From Nitrospirota bacterium (GTDB lineage Bacteria > Nitrospirota > Thermodesulfovibrionia > Thermodesulfovibrionales > Dissulfurispiraceae), in the NCBI GenBank assembly GCA_963790025.1, contig CAWBMP010000004.1, positions 1,440,001-1,504,000 of the forward strand: a DNA stretch of 64,000 bases, given 5' to 3'. This document shows, one piece after another, positions 45,938 to 51,907 of this stretch (within the stretch, counting starts at the first letter, position 1; each line of letters opens with the position of its first letter). The notes beneath the pieces are model-generated. The model ran no database searches, was not told the origin of the DNA, and saw only the letters and a program-made list of their open reading frames with translations. Both the position numbers and the translations under genes were made by a program.

Positions 45938-46019
45938 GCCGAAGTGGTGGAACTGGTAGACACGCACGTTTGAGGGGCGTGTGGGGCAACCTATGCGGGT
46001 TCGAGTCCCGCCTTCGGCA
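45938..46019 (+). tRNA. tRNA-Leu(GAG)
   Basis: GCCGAAG/CTTCGGC acceptor stem, anticodon loop TT-GAG-GG, long variable arm, GGTTCGAGTCC T arm; CCA not encoded. Confidence 0.97.
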
Positions 46020-46232
46020 TTTTTCTTTTCTTGCATATTCATATGCGTACACAATTAAGTTCTTACTTAAACAATAAAGTCTTTACTTAACCAATTAAGT
46101 TCTTACATTTCGCATCGTAAATTTCACCTCGGATTGTTTGCAAGTTCCGGAGCAAACCTGCTACTCGGTGATGTATTAACCTGAAACCGAGAGGAGAGCC
46201 CTTTCTGGTAAGGATGCGTCCACCCTGCTATA

Positions 46233-46349
46233 CGCGCGGCTGACATCCTGTCAAAGACGTTGAATGCCGATCGTAACATCTATTTGTGGCGATTTTGGGG
46301 TGAAGGGAAATGTAAACAATATAGACCTGACCCTCAGTTCTCTCTCACG
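46233..46349 (+). repeat. 117-bp inverted repeat, left copy
   Basis: Reverse complement of 51116-51232 with one mismatch. Confidence 0.95.
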
Positions 46350-46362
46350 CAGGAGCAACAGC

Positions 46363-47085
46363 CTATGGTTTCGGAGTAAAAGAGTATAGCGTATATGCAC
46401 ACGGTATCACGCCAGTATCCAGTCGAAGATCAATTTCCGGCAGTTTGTCAATATCAGAAAGTTGGCCGTTTGGTTCTGCATAGATCTCCGAAGCAAAAAC
46501 ATCCTGCCTCCGGAATGCCGAAAATCGCAGGTAAAGGAGATTCTCCAACTCATTATTTCTCGTATCAAATACCCTTAACCCTTTGGCTTTAACATGTTCA
46601 TTCGTTGCAAAGACTGTCTCAAAATGTTTGTTAATATCCAAAACAAACAAGGCGCCATTAAATTTTATAACTCTCCATAGCTCATCGGAAATCTTTAGCA
46701 GGTCAGCATCGCTGGAAAAGCAGTCAAAAACATTGGAACAAAGAACAATATCAAACATACTATTTTCAAAAGGTATTTCCAGAATTGATGCTACTTGAAA
46801 GTTCATGCTTTGGGGAGACATTCTTTTGCAGATGTCAATTGCTTTCTCGCTTATATCAAAACCATAACAATTCTCGGGCCTTGTGCGGAGTTCGGAAAAA
46901 AATCTCAGCTTTTCACCACCGGCGCACCCGGCTTCGAGTATTTTATATGTTGAAAGCTCGGTTTTACCCAGCATTATCATCATTCCTATCATGTATTTCC
47001 ATACCCGGTAGTTATTAAAAAGTCTGTAGAGATCCGCTAATCCCACCGGTAGTGAGCCATCCTGCCCGTATTCGAAAGTCGCCAT
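46363..47085 (-). CDS. Class I SAM-dependent methyltransferase (cargo)
   Basis: ILEAGCAGG, GFDIS, IPFENSMFDIV. Confidence 0.85.
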   Translation of the reverse strand: MATFEYGQDGSLPVGLADLYRLFNNYRVWKYMIGMMIMLGKTELSTYKILEAGCAGGEKLRFFSELRTRPENCYGFDISEKAIDICKRMSPQSMNFQVASILEIPFENSMFDIVLCSNVFDCFSSDADLLKISDELWRVIKFNGALFVLDINKHFETVFATNEHVKAKGLRVFDTRNNELENLLYLRFSAFRRQDVFASEIYAEPNGQLSDIDKLPEIDLRLDTGVIPCAYTLYSFTPKP

Positions 47086-47283
47086 TTTAAAATACCTCTC
47101 TTGTAGATTTTAGATTGACCATGCAGTCCTTTTTTTATCTTTCCTGCTACTTAAAATAAGTTACTTTCAACAAAGCTGTATGCTTATGGTTACAGCATGT
47201 ATTATACCAGACAATTTGTGGCAGCTTTCAGAAGGGAGGGCAGTGGGCTACTTTGAATTAAGAAGCTATGATATACTGTGGGT

Positions 47284-48252
47284 ATGACAACATTGGCAGC
47301 CTTATTAACAAAGGATGCGCTGATAATGGGCTGTGATAGCTTAGGGTCTGTAACTAGGCCATTCGTTGATCCTCTTGACTTGATGGATTACTTTGAAAGA
47401 ACCGCCCATGGCTTTGAGCAGAAAGTAGATAGCAATAATAAACCTATAATGAGTATTGACGATATCTTTAACAAAACTCGCGATATCCCTTATAATCATA
47501 TGACTTATGTCGATAAGCTGTTTTCGTTAGAGCCTTTACCTATGGGTATTATGATTACTGGTATCGCATCTATTGGAGACTATACAATTAAAAATTTGAT
47601 AAATCAGTTTATGGGTAAGGAGCCCATCTTTAAAAATAAAGGCAAATCAAAGAATTATACAGTTAGTTCGATAGCGAATAAGATATTGAAATTTATGAAA
47701 ACACATTACGATGCTGAGTACGGAAGTGGCCAAACCAAACAATCACTGGAAATGATGATAGGTGGTTATGATCTACAAAAACATATTCCAACTGTACTTA
47801 GAATACATGTGCATGAAAATAAAGTAGAAAAAACCTTAAAAGATTTTGGTATAGTATTTGGCGGACAAATGACTGAGATTCAGAGAATCGTGTTTGGCAC
47901 AGATGATTTCAACAGATTGAAGCTAATGGTAAGAAGTGATAAAATTTTGAACACATATTATGATGAAGTTACAACTTTTTTGAGGAACAACAACATTAGC
48001 ATTGATATTCCAAAACCGGACACAAAAAACAAACATAATTTTTTCCAAGGATGGGATATCAATGGATTTGACGCTTTTTGGGGTGATTTTTCAGAAAAAA
48101 ATGCCATTGAATGCGTTAAATTCTTTATAGATGTCATGGTTAAGACACAATTATTTAGTGATACAATGCCTACAGTCGGTGGGGATATTCATTTGGCAAA
48201 AATTACTAAAGCTGAAGGATTCAAGTTTTGTTATCAAGAAAAGGAGGGATAG
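47284..48252 (+). CDS. Proteasome beta-subunit-like Ntn hydrolase (putative)
   Basis: N-terminal MTT, LIMGCDS, DKLFSL, MIGGYD, C-terminal TVGGDIHLAKIT. Confidence 0.65.
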   Translation: MTTLAALLTKDALIMGCDSLGSVTRPFVDPLDLMDYFERTAHGFEQKVDSNNKPIMSIDDIFNKTRDIPYNHMTYVDKLFSLEPLPMGIMITGIASIGDYTIKNLINQFMGKEPIFKNKGKSKNYTVSSIANKILKFMKTHYDAEYGSGQTKQSLEMMIGGYDLQKHIPTVLRIHVHENKVEKTLKDFGIVFGGQMTEIQRIVFGTDDFNRLKLMVRSDKILNTYYDEVTTFLRNNNISIDIPKPDTKNKHNFFQGWDINGFDAFWGDFSEKNAIECVKFFIDVMVKTQLFSDTMPTVGGDIHLAKITKAEGFKFCYQEKEG

Positions 48253-48254
48253 AC

Positions 48255-48434
48255 ATGCAAAAAAGCTTGAAATACATAACTGCCGAAGAAATGAATATGT
48301 ACATTAAATATGCAGAGTATTTTAATGTTAAGGGTTTTTGTGCATCGACTTTAAATCGGTCAAATATACAGATTGATAAATTATTACAGCCGATGAATAA
48401 AGCTATTAGTAAGAAAAAAGTTACAAAGAAATAA
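48255..48434 (+). CDS. Small basic hypothetical protein
   Basis: AAGGAGG RBS; starts 2 nt after the upstream stop. Confidence 0.5.
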   Translation: MQKSLKYITAEEMNMYIKYAEYFNVKGFCASTLNRSNIQIDKLLQPMNKAISKKKVTKK

Positions 48435-48448
48435 GAGTCAATAAAGGA

Positions 48449-49273
48449 TTATAGTAAATTTATAATTTCTTCAATCTCCCAAACATGATCTGATATTCCT
48501 GCCTCCATGGCTGGGGTAACTCTCAATGTTTGGTGAATCCGGCAAAAGTTGTAATGCATGAAATGCAGAGCCACAGCACATTCAAGGTTCTCGACCTTCT
48601 TTGAAAAAGCGTTTGTCAATCTGGTAAACCTTCTCATGCTCATGCGCATTGTGAGGTTCTGCCGTTCCACATAGCTTGTAGAAATGTGTTTCTTATCGGG
48701 ATTGCCTTTTATATTTGCTGTTCGTGTTCCAGTGCAAATGGCGGGGCTGTACTTCTTTTGATTGTCAGGACTGTCATTGCCATATAGTTTAACGAGCATG
48801 GCATAATCAATATCACTGCCGAATGCATTTTCAACGGCATCGACATATACCCTGTAACCATCTGTAGTTAATTGGACACGGTGTTTTAATCTGCTTGCAA
48901 GGTCATTTATAAATGCCTTTGCCGCCTGTACGCTACGATCTCCGACATACCAGTTAGCTATAAGCGTTGAATCAGCGCATAAGGCTGTCCACGTCCACAC
49001 GTCACCGTAACCAAACTGCCCTTCAAATTCGGGTGGCACATTCTTATCCTTTGCATAACAGAAAGACCATATTTCGTCACACTGGATACGCTTGCAGGTA
49101 ATTTGACGGACGAACCTATTGTGATACTCCTTACAGACTTTGCCGAGATCAACAAGAAGCTTCAATACCGTCTTCTTTGCAGCGCCAGTCATTCTACAAG
49201 TGGCACGGATAGAATTGCCTTCAACTAAGCAGCTTACTAGTTGCGCTCTTTTCCTTGTATCTAACTGGCTCAT
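48449..49273 (-). CDS. IS1-family DDE transposase (single ORF)
   Basis: HTH (EGNSIRATCR), IQCDEIWSF, LTTDG, TSYVERQNLTMR...FSKK. Confidence 0.9.
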   Translation of the reverse strand: MSQLDTRKRAQLVSCLVEGNSIRATCRMTGAAKKTVLKLLVDLGKVCKEYHNRFVRQITCKRIQCDEIWSFCYAKDKNVPPEFEGQFGYGDVWTWTALCADSTLIANWYVGDRSVQAAKAFINDLASRLKHRVQLTTDGYRVYVDAVENAFGSDIDYAMLVKLYGNDSPDNQKKYSPAICTGTRTANIKGNPDKKHISTSYVERQNLTMRMSMRRFTRLTNAFSKKVENLECAVALHFMHYNFCRIHQTLRVTPAMEAGISDHVWEIEEIINLL

Positions 49274-49279
49274 GATTTT

Positions 49280-49308
49280 ATTATACTTGACCGCTCAAGC
49301 ATTGTCAA
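49280..49308 (-). promoter_or_regulatory. Consensus sigma70 promoter of the transposase, with palindromic operator; leaderless
   Basis: TTGACA-17 nt-TATAAT-6 nt-ATG; the spacer contains CTTGA-GCGG-TCAAG. Confidence 0.8.
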
Positions 49309-49422
49309 GTAAAAAATGTCGACATGAGACACCTTCGTAAGCATTACTTGACAAACTGCATGGTCAACTTGATAAGATAGCTAGTAAACTTGACGATATA
49401 ATGTCGTTATGGAGGCCATCGT

Positions 49423-50655
49423 ATGACAGATCAAGATTGGGATCAATTAGCTATTGATGCCGGGAAAGTTTTTACCCCTGCGGCACCTATAGATGAAGAG
49501 CGTTTATTCGCAGGTCGACTTGAACAACTACGACAGGTTATTGATGCAATAAATCAGAAAGGACAACATGCAATTGTTTTCGGGGAAAGAGGCGTTGGAA
49601 AAACTTCTCTAGCGAATATTATCGCTACAAAAATAAGTGGTGCCTTAATCATAGCTCCTCGTATTAATTGCGACAGCACTGATACTTATTCAAGTCTTTG
49701 GAAAAAGATATTTGACCGTATTAATTTGACAAAGGAAGTTCACAAAATCGGGTTTACTAATGGTAGCAACATTGAACCCATAAATATTTGTGAACAATTT
49801 GCTGAGAGTGATATTTCTACTGATAACGTTCGTTCATTACTTACTTATCTATCTGAACATTTTTTGATTATCCTTATCATTGATGAATTTGATCGTATTG
49901 CTAAGCCCGAAGTAAGAGCAGCAGTTGCTGATACTATCAAAACATTATCAGATCATTCCATTGCGGCTACGATTGTCCTTGTTGGTGTCGCTGACAGCGT
50001 GAACGATCTAGTAAGTGAACATCAATCAATTGAACGAGCTTTAGTTCAGATTAGAATGCCCCGCATGTCCAATGATGAGCTTTATAAAATAGTAGACAAT
50101 GGATTGAACATATTAAAAATGTCAATTGATGATGACGCAAAAAGAGAAATAGTTTTATTGTCCAGAGGATTGCCACATTATACTCACCTTCTATCTTTAT
50201 ATTCAGCAAGAGAGGCTCTTGATGGAAGGTCATTGAATATCAATATTGGACATGTGGAATCTGCTATTTCCGAAGCACTGCAAAAAGCCCAACAAACGAC
50301 TCAGACTGCATATCATAAGGCAACAATGAGTGCAAGAAGAGACAATTTATTTTCCCAGGTTTTGCTTGCATGTGGCCTTGCAAAGACTGATGATTTAGGT
50401 TATTTCTCTGCTGGCGATATTAGAATCCCTTTATGTGAAATCATGGGAAAGTCATATGATATTGCTAGTTATTCTAGACATTTATATGAATTTTGTGAAC
50501 CAGCGCGCGGTCCAATATTACAAAGAACTGGAGTCAAACATCGATACAAATTCCGTTTTATTAATCCTTTGATGCAACCGTTTATTATTATGCAAGGTCG
50601 GGTAACAAATCTTATTGATAGACAGAAGTTAGAATCTATAAAAAATAAGTACTAA
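49423..50655 (+). CDS. AAA+ ATPase (Orc1/Cdc6- or STAND-like) with probable C-terminal winged helix
   Basis: FAGRLEQL, Walker A GERGVGKT, Walker B IIIDEFD, GLPHY; GGAGG RBS. Confidence 0.85.
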   Translation: MTDQDWDQLAIDAGKVFTPAAPIDEERLFAGRLEQLRQVIDAINQKGQHAIVFGERGVGKTSLANIIATKISGALIIAPRINCDSTDTYSSLWKKIFDRINLTKEVHKIGFTNGSNIEPINICEQFAESDISTDNVRSLLTYLSEHFLIILIIDEFDRIAKPEVRAAVADTIKTLSDHSIAATIVLVGVADSVNDLVSEHQSIERALVQIRMPRMSNDELYKIVDNGLNILKMSIDDDAKREIVLLSRGLPHYTHLLSLYSAREALDGRSLNINIGHVESAISEALQKAQQTTQTAYHKATMSARRDNLFSQVLLACGLAKTDDLGYFSAGDIRIPLCEIMGKSYDIASYSRHLYEFCEPARGPILQRTGVKHRYKFRFINPLMQPFIIMQGRVTNLIDRQKLESIKNKY

Positions 50656-50900
50656 GATTTAGGGATTTTAGCCCATCTTGTATGAGCAGCTTTAATAGCA
50701 ATATGCTTTCTCGATTCCGCAGATAGCTTCTCAGCGCGCGCTTTGCCGCCTTTCAACCCTCCAAGTCTGCCAAGGGCAACTGCGGCAGGATTCTTTTCTT
50801 TGGCAGGCTGTTCCGGTCGGGAACGGTCAGAAGTTACAGCTTCAACTATTGATGCGGCGATCTGGTTTACATCTTCGGTTTTCTTTCTCTTTCTTTCCAT
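50652..50900 (-). CDS. Small basic protein with KNPAAVALGRLGGLKGG motif
   Basis: KGG-type motif; preceded by a promoter related to the transposase promoter. Confidence 0.8.
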   Translation of the reverse strand: MERKRKKTEDVNQIAASIVEAVTSDRSRPEQPAKEKNPAAVALGRLGGLKGGKARAEKLSAESRKHIAIKAAHTRWAKIPKS

Positions 50901-50905
50901 GCTTT

Positions 50906-50934
50906 AGTGTAGCATGACCGTTCAAGCATATCAA
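50906..50934 (-). promoter_or_regulatory. Sigma70-like leaderless promoter with operator shared with the transposase promoter
   Basis: TTGATA-17 nt-TACACT-5 nt-ATG; shares ATGCTTGARCGGTCA. Confidence 0.7.
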
Positions 50935-51115
50935 GATACCGGAAATTCAAAGTAGCCAACTACCGAAGGGAGTTACATTACGGAAACACTTTTTAACAAA
51001 TTTCTGTGTAAATCATACTCATTTTCCTTTTTCAAGCCCTCTGGATTCGGAGATGCAACTAATAAACCACTTCCGAGGATTACGGGCTTTAGGAGGTGAT
51101 GTCTGTTTCAGCGAA

Positions 51116-51232
51116 CGTGAGAGAGAACTGAGGGTCAGGTCTATATTGTTTGCATTTCCCTTCACCCCAAAATCGCCACAAATAGATGTTACGATCGGCA
51201 TTCAACGTCTTTGACAGGATGTCAGCCGCGCG
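51116..51232 (-). repeat. 117-bp inverted repeat, right copy
   Basis: Reverse complement of 46233-46349. Confidence 0.95.
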
Positions 51233-51907
51233 GGTTATCAGGGTGTACTCGGGGGAAATTCGGCCCTAAAAAGTATGAACTTTATTGTTTGCTGTTTTAA
51301 GAGCTTTATTGTTTTCCTCTGAAAAAAAGTAAGAACTTTGATGTCTTGGGCTTTTTTGTCGTATTATATGAATCAACAGGTTAGGTTGTCATTTTGTAGA
51401 GACTTTATTGTCTACAGATAATTAAATAAGTTACATACCTGAAACTCTCATTATTACCGTGAACAAAATAATCCCTTCGCTATTAAGAAAAAGTTCTGAT
51501 TTGCGAGAGCAGAAAGCGACAGTTTTTATGATAAAAACGGTCGCTGTCCCTATTTGTTCTTTTACCGGCATGACAGCGTAACACCCGCCGCGACTCCAGG
51601 GAATAGGCCTGATGCGTTTTTTATTTTGTTTTTTATTGACATAATATTTTTATGGGTTTAACATAGATCAGTAGTTCATAACTTTTTTGAGCTAAAAGGA
51701 GGTGAAGTCAATGGATGATGGCCCTGGAAACAGTAGTAACATAACATCGGCCGTGCGGATGTCTGCGCGAAGGGGGACCTTCTGTTCATTGCTCGCCTCT
51801 ATGTCAACTCTTCTCTAATCCCGTCCGCTTTCTTCTTCACAAGACTTCGCCGGCCAAAACACGTAGCGGTTTTCGCTGTTGCTATTGAATAATGGAGGTG
51901 AAGTGTC

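Follow-up and report, generated by a model that had tools for sequence, protein, structure and literature searches.

Canonical insertion sequences (IS) of the IS1 family are about 0.8 kb in length and encode insA and insB', which are joined by a -1 frameshift; the canonical group as a whole extends from about 0.74 to 1.2 kb. The terminal inverted repeats (TIRs) of the family begin with GGnnnTG, and its target-site duplications measure 8-9 bp. A subgroup of IS1 in ISfinder, ISMhu11, presumably covers 0.9-4.6 kb, and passenger-bearing relatives of IS1 would thus not be unprecedented. Transporter IS, with ISMhu11 and the '+' subgroups of IS1595 among them, were reportedly treated by Siguier, Gagnevin and Chandler in 2009. 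The present study concerns a stretch of 64,000 nucleotides from a Nitrospirota bacterium of the Dissulfurispiraceae (GenBank assembly GCA_963790025.1, contig CAWBMP010000004.1, positions 1,440,001 to 1,504,000), referred to below as the window, and within it a unit of 3726 bp (window positions 47239-50964) that, judged by its sequence, is an IS1-related, passenger-carrying transporter IS.

Several features of the locus are shared with IS1. Its DDE transposase has detectable similarity, below the curated cut-off, to an IS1 model; its ends begin with GGCAGTG (left) and GGTAGTT (right) and those of its family with GGTAGTG, to be compared with the IS1 pattern GGnnnTG; its target duplication is 8 bp long, as in 62 of the 81 loci considered here (80 external loci plus the window); and a small gene beside an end repeat, upstream of the catalytic gene and on the same strand, occupies the position of insA. 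The differences lie in the genes and in the size. The window transposase is a single open reading frame (ORF) with no frameshift and has its own internal promoter; it has no zinc-finger region, the IS1 model being aligned from residue 8 of the transposase and only from its own position 44; the small protein shows no sequence relationship to InsA and has no family match; and the unit, with its passengers, is 3.7 kb long versus about 0.8 kb. Given the single ORF of 274 amino acids and the length of 3726 bp, the unit is not a canonical IS1, and belongs at most to a single-ORF or ISMhu11-like part of the family.

The transporter IS (tIS), i.e., an IS that carries passenger genes, is an accepted category (PMC9330008, PMC7986276). 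The unit is like a tIS in that a peptidase gene, a 59-amino acid ORF and an ATPase gene, which are not needed for transposition, lie inside its own inverted repeats. Tn7-like transposons carry defence systems (Benler et al. 2021, PMC8649781); their cargo is reportedly dominated by defence systems and other mobile elements and varies between close relatives, which is the likeness to the elements described here. Tn7-like elements are many times larger, with several transposition proteins and specific target sites, whereas the elements described here are 1.4-5 kb long and have one transposase and no evident target consensus. A conserved second core gene, two cargo slots, a promoter palindrome and defence-type cargo were not found for IS1-related elements in the literature searched, with overlap with the ISMhu11 entries of ISfinder being possible. 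On the evidence presented below, we consider it highly probable that the unit is an intact passenger-carrying IS of a very large IS1-related family, with the regulation and the defence-type cargo that are proposed here.

Ends and layout of the unit and its relatives

The unit is flanked by an exact 8-bp target-site duplication, GAAGGGAG, whose left copy at 47231-47238 is identical to the right copy at 50965-50972 in the window sequence. Inside it lie the 21-bp TIRs. The left TIR, at the transposase-distal end (47239-47259, plus strand), reads GGCAGTGGGCTACTTTGAATT, and the right TIR, beside the small gene (50944-50964, minus strand), reads GGTAGTTGGCTACTTTGAATT as its reverse complement; the two match at 19 of 21 positions, the mismatches being at positions 3 and 7. 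A degenerate pattern of these ends occurred at exactly two sites in the window, where 0.01 were expected, and two or more matches were seen in none of 100 shuffles. An independent repeat search of the window recovered the same inverted pair. The length of the unit, the near-perfect TIRs and the perfect duplication had all been proposed in a preliminary description of this DNA, and each can be read directly in the sequence.

The single-ORF, IS1-related DDE transposase gene (48449-49273, minus strand; 274 amino acids), assigned from sub-threshold matches to the NCBIfam and Pfam IS1 models and from alignment, sits in the middle of the unit, preceded by its promoter at 49280-49308 (minus strand). 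The small basic core gene (50652-50900, minus strand; 82 amino acids), recognized by the family profile, lies near the right end and is preceded by a promoter of its own at 50906-50934 (minus strand). The space between the two core genes, designated slot 1, holds the gene for a Cdc6/ORC-like AAA ATPase (49423-50655, plus strand; 410 amino acids), identified by Pfam. Slot 2, beyond the transposase, holds the gene for a proteasome-beta/HslV-like N-terminal-nucleophile peptidase (47284-48252, plus strand; 322 amino acids), identified by its AlphaFold model, Foldseek and alignment, and the 59-amino acid ORF (48255-48434, plus strand), its probable operon partner. Each passenger block is convergent with a core gene, tail to tail: the ATPase gene shares 4 nt with the small gene, and the 59-amino acid ORF lies 14 nt from the transposase gene. 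The passenger regions have a G+C content of 31-37%, lower than the 43-46% of the regions that hold the two core genes and than the roughly 45% of the flanks. The ORF list and the G+C values thus agree with the preliminary description, which had placed a single-ORF transposase in mid-unit, a KGG-motif gene near the right end, and AT-rich passengers in two slots. The window contains one transposase gene and one pair of ends, with no second flanking IS copy, so the unit does not qualify as a composite transposon.

Relatives were sought by scanning 185,579 species genomes, one genome per species, with the transposase alignment, and the best 80 of at least 597 matches to two peptide patterns were retained as loci. 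Their transposases are 57-69% identical to that of the window, and they derive from Acidobacteriota, Desulfobacterota-type 'delta proteobacteria', Nitrospirota, Planctomycetota, Verrucomicrobiota, Actinomycetota, Chloroflexota, Bacteroidota, Pseudomonadota and others. Family ends were found by a fuzzy search with the window end sequence and were paired by the presence of a duplication. Most transposase genes were bracketed by the conserved family end, GGTAGTGGGTCAGTTTGAA, from which the left TIR of the window differs at a few positions; nearly all ends had GGTAGTG. Both ends were present in 70 of the 81 loci, and both ends with a perfect 8-bp duplication in 62, i.e., 61 external elements and the window, while position-shifted controls gave 0. 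Eleven loci had one end only, mostly where the contig stops; no left end was found in the 6 kb upstream in L038 and L049. Eight loci had both ends and no perfect duplication, two of them matching at 7 of 8 positions and one fitting a 7-bp duplication. The 62 delimited elements range in length from 1417 to 4969 bp, and their printed duplications, read by eye, had no evident target consensus. The preliminary description had asked that homologues be delimited with the TIR consensus, and by this check the repeats are indeed the true ends of a transposon.

The position of these ends relative to the transposase gene is also informative about what is being moved. In all 62 delimited elements, the upstream (left) end lies 376-3118 bp before the transposase start, whereas the downstream end lies 18-113 bp past the transposase stop in 21 elements and 258-2650 bp past it in 41. 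The preliminary description had named homologous transposases with ends directly flanking the ORF as the finding that would speak against it; since no upstream end abuts the transposase ORF in the 62 elements, this arrangement was not encountered. Moreover, the 61 external elements differ in cargo and yet have the duplication beyond the two ends of the full unit, which is indirect evidence that the whole unit, passengers included, would transpose. An alternative is that the 21-bp repeats belong to a larger element, in which the transposase is a compact nested IS, with the small gene and the passengers as bystanders. The complete transposase promoter in mid-unit and the approximately 0.8 kb of canonical IS1 would suit such an arrangement. 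No second inverted-repeat pair, however, surrounds the transposase in the window; in the 61 external elements, which come from many phyla and have an 8-bp duplication apiece, the same ends bracket small gene, cargo and transposase, with the left end never closer than the above minimum; and the end sequence starts with GGTAGTG, in the pattern of IS1 ends. A nested compact IS is therefore extremely improbable and was rejected, for want of an inner repeat pair and because the family end data contradict it.

The transposase itself has at least 8000 relatives in the protein collection, and those with a name are called 'IS1 family transposase' in NCBI and JGI labels; the closest two, 81% and 76% identical, are known from metagenome contigs only. 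Among phage genomes, the one match obtained, distant at 31% identity, was to a jumbo phage of Brevundimonas. Across 25 aligned sequences, D138 and E203 were invariant and D66 nearly so, and all three residues are kept in the window; from their similarity to IS1 motifs, we take them to be the DDE triad. An N-terminal helix-turn-helix region is present and is covered by the IS1 model.

Some of the evidence weighs against the reading of the unit as an intact IS of an IS1-related family. The transposase scored 56.8 bits (E 2.9e-15) against the NCBIfam IS1 model (transpos_IS1), for which the cut-off is 100, and 21.3 bits (E 3.8e-4) against Pfam DDE_Tnp_IS1, for which it is 24.1. As both scores are under the curated cut-offs, the transposase is a divergent IS1 relative outside the curated equivalog; the family name rests on sub-threshold similarity and on the labels of other annotators, the homology itself, as judged from these alignments, being real. 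The ORFs were called mechanically. The loci were the best matches rather than a random sample, and distant relatives might be compact; 19 of the 81 are without both ends and a perfect duplication. Lastly, the unit is present in a single copy in the window, its ends differ at 2 of 21 positions, and there is no sign of movement. The single copy and the unequal ends, together with a transposase G+C (0.43) close to that of the flanks (0.45), would also be expected of a fixed, immobile relic with passengers domesticated by the host. Set against a relic are the five ORFs, all of them open, the perfect duplication, a promoter of perfect consensus, and the retention of the candidate catalytic residues D66, D138 and E203, and we regard it as rather improbable. 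It is to be noted that the age of the insertion cannot be read from the duplication: the preliminary description had taken the intact duplication as a sign of recent insertion, and since an intact duplication is the norm in the family, it does not date the insertion in the window.

The small core gene and the promoter palindromes

The small protein is very basic. Its conserved parts are a helix motif at the N-terminus, DVNQIAASIVEAVT, and a helical hairpin, KGG...ARW, at the C-terminus; its structural model (pLDDT 83) comprises a short helix followed by a helical hairpin. When the 82-amino acid protein was used in tblastn, a relative was found in 46 of the 80 loci; with few exceptions, it lay immediately inside the upstream end, in the orientation of the transposase gene. 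An iterated profile, run over all ORFs of the delimited elements, raised the count to 57 of 62, including matches in larger cargo proteins. The N-terminal helix motif (consensus D-x-N-Q-L-A-x-x-I-V-x-x-A-T) was present in 59 of the 62 elements and was visible by eye in two of the remaining three (L073 and L078), while the KGG...ARW part was present in a small ORF in 54-55 of them. L057 and L071, and by eye L073 and L078, have a different small protein, with the helix motif only, at its C-terminus; the transposases of these four elements are closely related. In 56 of 59 elements, the small gene had the same orientation as the transposase gene. L074, at 1417 bp the smallest element, holds only these two genes, and in L059 they directly adjoin each other, the cargo being confined to the downstream side. 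The same layout was found on plasmids of cultured Mesorhizobium loti and Acidiphilium multivorum; the downstream slot in the Acidiphilium record contains a RES toxin and an Xre-type antitoxin, and the small-gene relative in the Mesorhizobium record is annotated 'histone H1', as is the case for the name of an Atlas cluster. The expectation that the small gene is constant and linked to the transposase was thus upheld across the family.

As a family, the small protein is represented by 15,221 cluster representatives at E<=1e-3 and by 4,580 at 1e-10. It had no Pfam, NCBIfam or PADLOC family, and 52 members searched against Pfam at E<=1 gave scattered chance matches only; a profile search of the PDB sequences and a Foldseek search of the model against PDB each returned 0 matches, and tblastn against phage genomes gave no match. 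Its hairpin also recurs in the cargo, the KGG...ARW module of the small core protein being present in P63C cargo proteins as well. Such P63C ORFs, of about 350 amino acids, occur in L016, L004, L024, L040, L050, L064 and L077; the module is N-terminal in that of L016, and the small ORF of L016 has lost it. The IS core protein and P63C proteins of phage type thus appear to have this module in common.

The promoters of the two core genes resemble each other in position and in content. The transposase promoter (TTGACA-17 nt-TATAAT) is the only 12/12 sigma-70 match in the unit, and its -10 box ends 6 nt before the transposase ATG. The small-gene promoter (TTGATA-17 nt-TACACT) matches at 9 of 12 positions, with the TG of an extended -10, and its -10 box ends 5 nt before the small-gene ATG. 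At these distances of 5-6 nt from the start codons, the two mRNAs are probably leaderless or nearly so. The promoter scan as a whole was not above chance (15 sites versus 14.3 in shuffles), and weight is placed only on the 12/12 site and on conservation. With regard to the latter, alignment by eye of the 110 nt upstream of 62 transposases revealed, in most of them, the order CTTGACA, TGCTTGAGCGCTCAAGCA, TAAT, about 7 nt, and ATG. The spacer of the transposase promoter contains the palindrome TGCTTGA-GCGG-TCAAGTA (49284-49301), and the spacer of the small-gene promoter contains a similar near-palindrome, TGCTTGA-ACGG-TCATGCT. Repeated ATGCTTGCA motifs were found upstream of the transposase in several elements with P63C cargo.

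When scored against TGCTTGA-N3-5-TCAAGCA over 14 positions, the palindrome reached 11 or more upstream of the transposase in 31 of the 55 elements with a KGG small gene versus 0 of the 7 without (Fisher's exact p = 0.011, with relatedness ignored); random 80-nt windows of the same loci had a mean score of 8.2 and a maximum of 11. This association supports, short of proof, a reading of the KGG hairpin as a module that binds DNA at GCTTG-type half-sites, by which the small protein would repress the transposase promoter and often its own. Three points count on the other side. The link depends on seven KGG-less elements, of which four (L057, L071, L073 and L078) have closely related transposases; the palindrome could instead be a target of the helix-turn-helix at the N-terminus of the transposase; and the left-end match to the palindrome overlaps, in many elements, the first codons of the small gene (MPKRSSK) and may therefore reflect coding conservation only.

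The second of these points leads to a different role for the small protein, namely that of a transposition cofactor, either a histone-like protein in bending or synapsis or a subunit that docks on the transposase, with the palindrome bound by the transposase through its helix-turn-helix region. The most universal part of the small protein is indeed its N-terminal helix motif, the 59 elements that have it including five without KGG in the small ORF, and the strongly basic character of the protein and its public 'histone H1' labels would also fit a cofactor. Conversely, strong palindromes are limited to elements with the KGG domain, and in the window and several relatives the small gene has a similar palindrome in its promoter, as is usual for autoregulators; these two arguments are not decisive, and we judge the cofactor role to be unlikely without being far-fetched. 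The two roles share one element, as the N-terminal helix of a repressor may also contact the transposase. In the proposed regulation, each core gene would be transcribed from its own sigma-70-type promoter, and the small protein would most likely bind the TGCTTGA-N4-TCAAGCA-type palindrome as a dimer through its KGG...ARW hairpin, thereby repressing both the transposase and itself. It would, by analogy, be a non-homologous, functional stand-in for InsA.

Cargo slots and the passengers of the window

Counting a slot as occupied if it contained an ORF of at least 100 amino acids, slot 1 (small gene to transposase) was occupied in 58 of the 62 elements and slot 2 (after the transposase) in 31. 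Relative to the core genes, the cargo ORFs were predominantly on the opposite strand, with 56 minus versus 29 plus in slot 1 and 32 minus versus 14 plus in slot 2. The first cargo ORF was convergent with the small gene in 36 of 58 cases and with the transposase in 22 of 31. The convergence of passengers on core genes, one of the earlier claims, is therefore true of the window, and in the family it describes a majority and not a rule. The cargo of close relatives differs: among pairs with transposases at least 80% identical, 3 of 11 shared homologous cargo, and then at only about 32% identity, and among pairs at 70-80%, 1 of 26 did. The cargo is thus variable, as had been anticipated, and it turns over rapidly. 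In 52 of 61 elements, the G+C content of the cargo was below that of the transposase. Together with the constancy of the small gene and the occupancy of the two slots, this turnover bears out the earlier proposal of a transporter-IS lineage with a two-gene core and variable slots.

The junctions between cargo and core were also recurrent. A 4-nt overlap of stop codons (CTAG, CTAA, TTAG or TTAA) was observed at 14 of 35 convergent junctions of small gene and cargo despite differing cargo families, namely in the window (50652-50655) and in L004, L014, L016, L024, L027, L032, L041, L044, L046, L050, L068, L071 and L079, and at 5 of 23 convergent junctions of transposase and cargo. This recurrence suggests strong compaction or a preferred cargo junction.

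To identify the cargo, five small-gene ORFs were set aside from the 152 external ORFs of 100 amino acids or more, and the remaining 147 were scanned. At E<=1e-5, 55 of the 147 matched a Pfam family and 92 did not. The matches comprised P63C (9), ClpP-like SDH protease (6), HTH with Peptidase_M78 (4), HTH_3 proteins of about 380 amino acids (4), N6/N4 DNA methylases (3, of which one is a fusion with an Mrr-like nuclease and another precedes an HNH protein), AAA_21/AAA_15 ATPases (2), SocA/Panacea (2) and DUF3800 (2), with single cases of GmrSD, NYN, PIN, HigB, YhaV, Fic, Bro-N, Clp protease, GNAT and a dCTP-deaminase-like protein. PADLOC, at E<=1e-8, recognized 23 of the 147 ORFs, in 19 of the 61 external elements; these included full-length RmrA in three elements, with RmrT alongside in two, PD-Lambda-2_B (5), HEC-04 (2), HEC-06, SoFic, a type II methylase with restriction enzyme, and PDC-S13. 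By these matches, the recognizable cargo is largely anti-phage defence, restriction-modification and toxin-antitoxin. Unlike the other cargo, the slot-2 gene of L037 (7266-8087), in an element with a perfect 8-bp duplication, is of a housekeeping type, resembling orotidine-5'-phosphate decarboxylase. Other IS are nested in cargo slots as well, namely a DDE_Tnp_1_4 transposase in L026 (7659-8990) and a Mutator-family transposase in L034 (4168-5469).

The peptidase gene of the window was called mechanically as an ORF of 324 amino acids at 47278-48252 (plus strand), starting with GTG at 47278; the ATG at 47284 gives 322 amino acids beginning Met-Thr-Thr, and the collection's own gene prediction gives 308, with a start 16 codons downstream. 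The protein had no family match in Pfam, NCBIfam or PADLOC. It has 241 homologues, almost all called 'hypothetical protein'; of the loci, one (L049) has a relative, 31% identical, just upstream of the transposase. In an alignment of 32 sequences, Thr2 and Asp18 were invariant, and the AlphaFold model (pLDDT 84.7) gave 20S proteasome beta subunits and Anbu as top Foldseek matches (E about 1e-6, probability 1.00). Because of these invariant residues and structural matches, the 324-amino acid protein is, on its predicted fold, a proteasome-beta/HslV-like N-terminal-nucleophile peptidase with extra helical insertions. The 308-amino acid start would drop the invariant N-terminal Thr, which fold and alignment indicate as the nucleophile, and the ATG at 47284 is thus the likelier start.

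The adjoining ORF was called at 48228-48434 (plus strand), and its likely start is the ATG at 48255, 2 nt past the peptidase stop and preceded by AAGGAGG, which makes this 59-amino acid protein a probable operon partner of the peptidase. It had no match in Pfam, NCBIfam or PADLOC and no homologue among the 80 loci. The ATPase in slot 1 is a P-loop protein that matched Pfam AAA_22 (1e-10), AAA_16 and nSTAND1. Its 4759 relatives are labelled 'Cdc6-like AAA superfamily ATPase' (JGI) or 'AAA family ATPase', and none was found among the 80 loci; its PADLOC matches, to mad8 (1.2e-8) and IetA, were weak. Metagenome contigs of equal size were noticed in the lists of transposase and Cdc6-like ATPase relatives (3400, 3546, 3377 and 3404 nt) and in those of transposase and peptidase relatives (2458 and 3538 nt), a hint that complete elements carrying these cargo types are assembled as contigs of their own.

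The passengers of the window had no strong match to any known defence model in PADLOC, which counts against a defence function. They are nonetheless most likely defence, abortive-infection or addiction modules, because the recognizable cargo of the sister elements encodes such systems. Cargo of this kind would probably aid the persistence of the element through defence or addiction. It is exchanged between related elements, and one might speculate that the exchange occurs by recombination in the conserved borders of the slots.

Genomic setting and implications

A tRNA-Leu gene (anticodon GAG, 45938-46019) lies about 1.2 kb upstream of the insertion. An inverted repeat of 133 nt (46218-46350 and 51116-51248), 95% identical over its length and 99% over a 117-nt core, brackets the IS together with a methyltransferase gene (46363-47085, minus strand). 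Beside this repeat are 19-20-nt repeats of TAAACAATAAAGTCTTTAC, of which four are direct (46048-46331) and two inverted (51271-51290 and 51396-51414). As a structured RNA, the 133-nt repeat folded no better than shuffles (z 0.22 and 0.53) and had no Rfam match. The stretch of lower G+C from about 46400 to 51500, beside the tRNA, may be a small genomic islet that received the IS.

The same layout was found in 61 independent external elements, and in the direction of the transposase the family plan reads as end repeat, small basic gene, slot 1, transposase with its promoter, an optional slot 2, and end repeat. By analogy to IS1, the single-ORF DDE transposase would bind the GGTAGTG-type ends and move everything between them, with an 8-bp staggered cut at the target. 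The passengers separate the transposase gene from the end repeat, hence its own strong promoter.

IS are usually treated as bare transposase genes, and in the public records examined only the transposase is labelled as such, the small gene being 'histone H1' or 'hypothetical protein'. If the two-gene core with exchangeable slots is true, thousands of 'hypothetical' genes next to IS1-family transposases could be interpreted as mobile cargo with exact boundaries. The family would also be a very simple vehicle by which genes for defence and toxin-antitoxin systems spread through a dozen phyla or more, and its slots would give guilt-by-association leads to new defence genes. The small protein and its palindrome would offer a testable case of how an IS transposase is controlled once passengers separate the gene from the end repeat. 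More tentatively, and with somewhat less than an even chance of being right, the huge unnamed IS1-related clade, with at least 8000 transposase clusters and the above-mentioned small-protein representatives, may be the smallest known shuttle of defence and addiction cassettes, in which a two-gene core with a new palindrome-binding regulator is joined to two slots that exchange cargo faster than the transposase diverges. The 92 cargo ORFs without a Pfam family, and the peptidase operon and ATPase of the window, could then be a concentrated source of undiscovered anti-phage and toxin-antitoxin systems.

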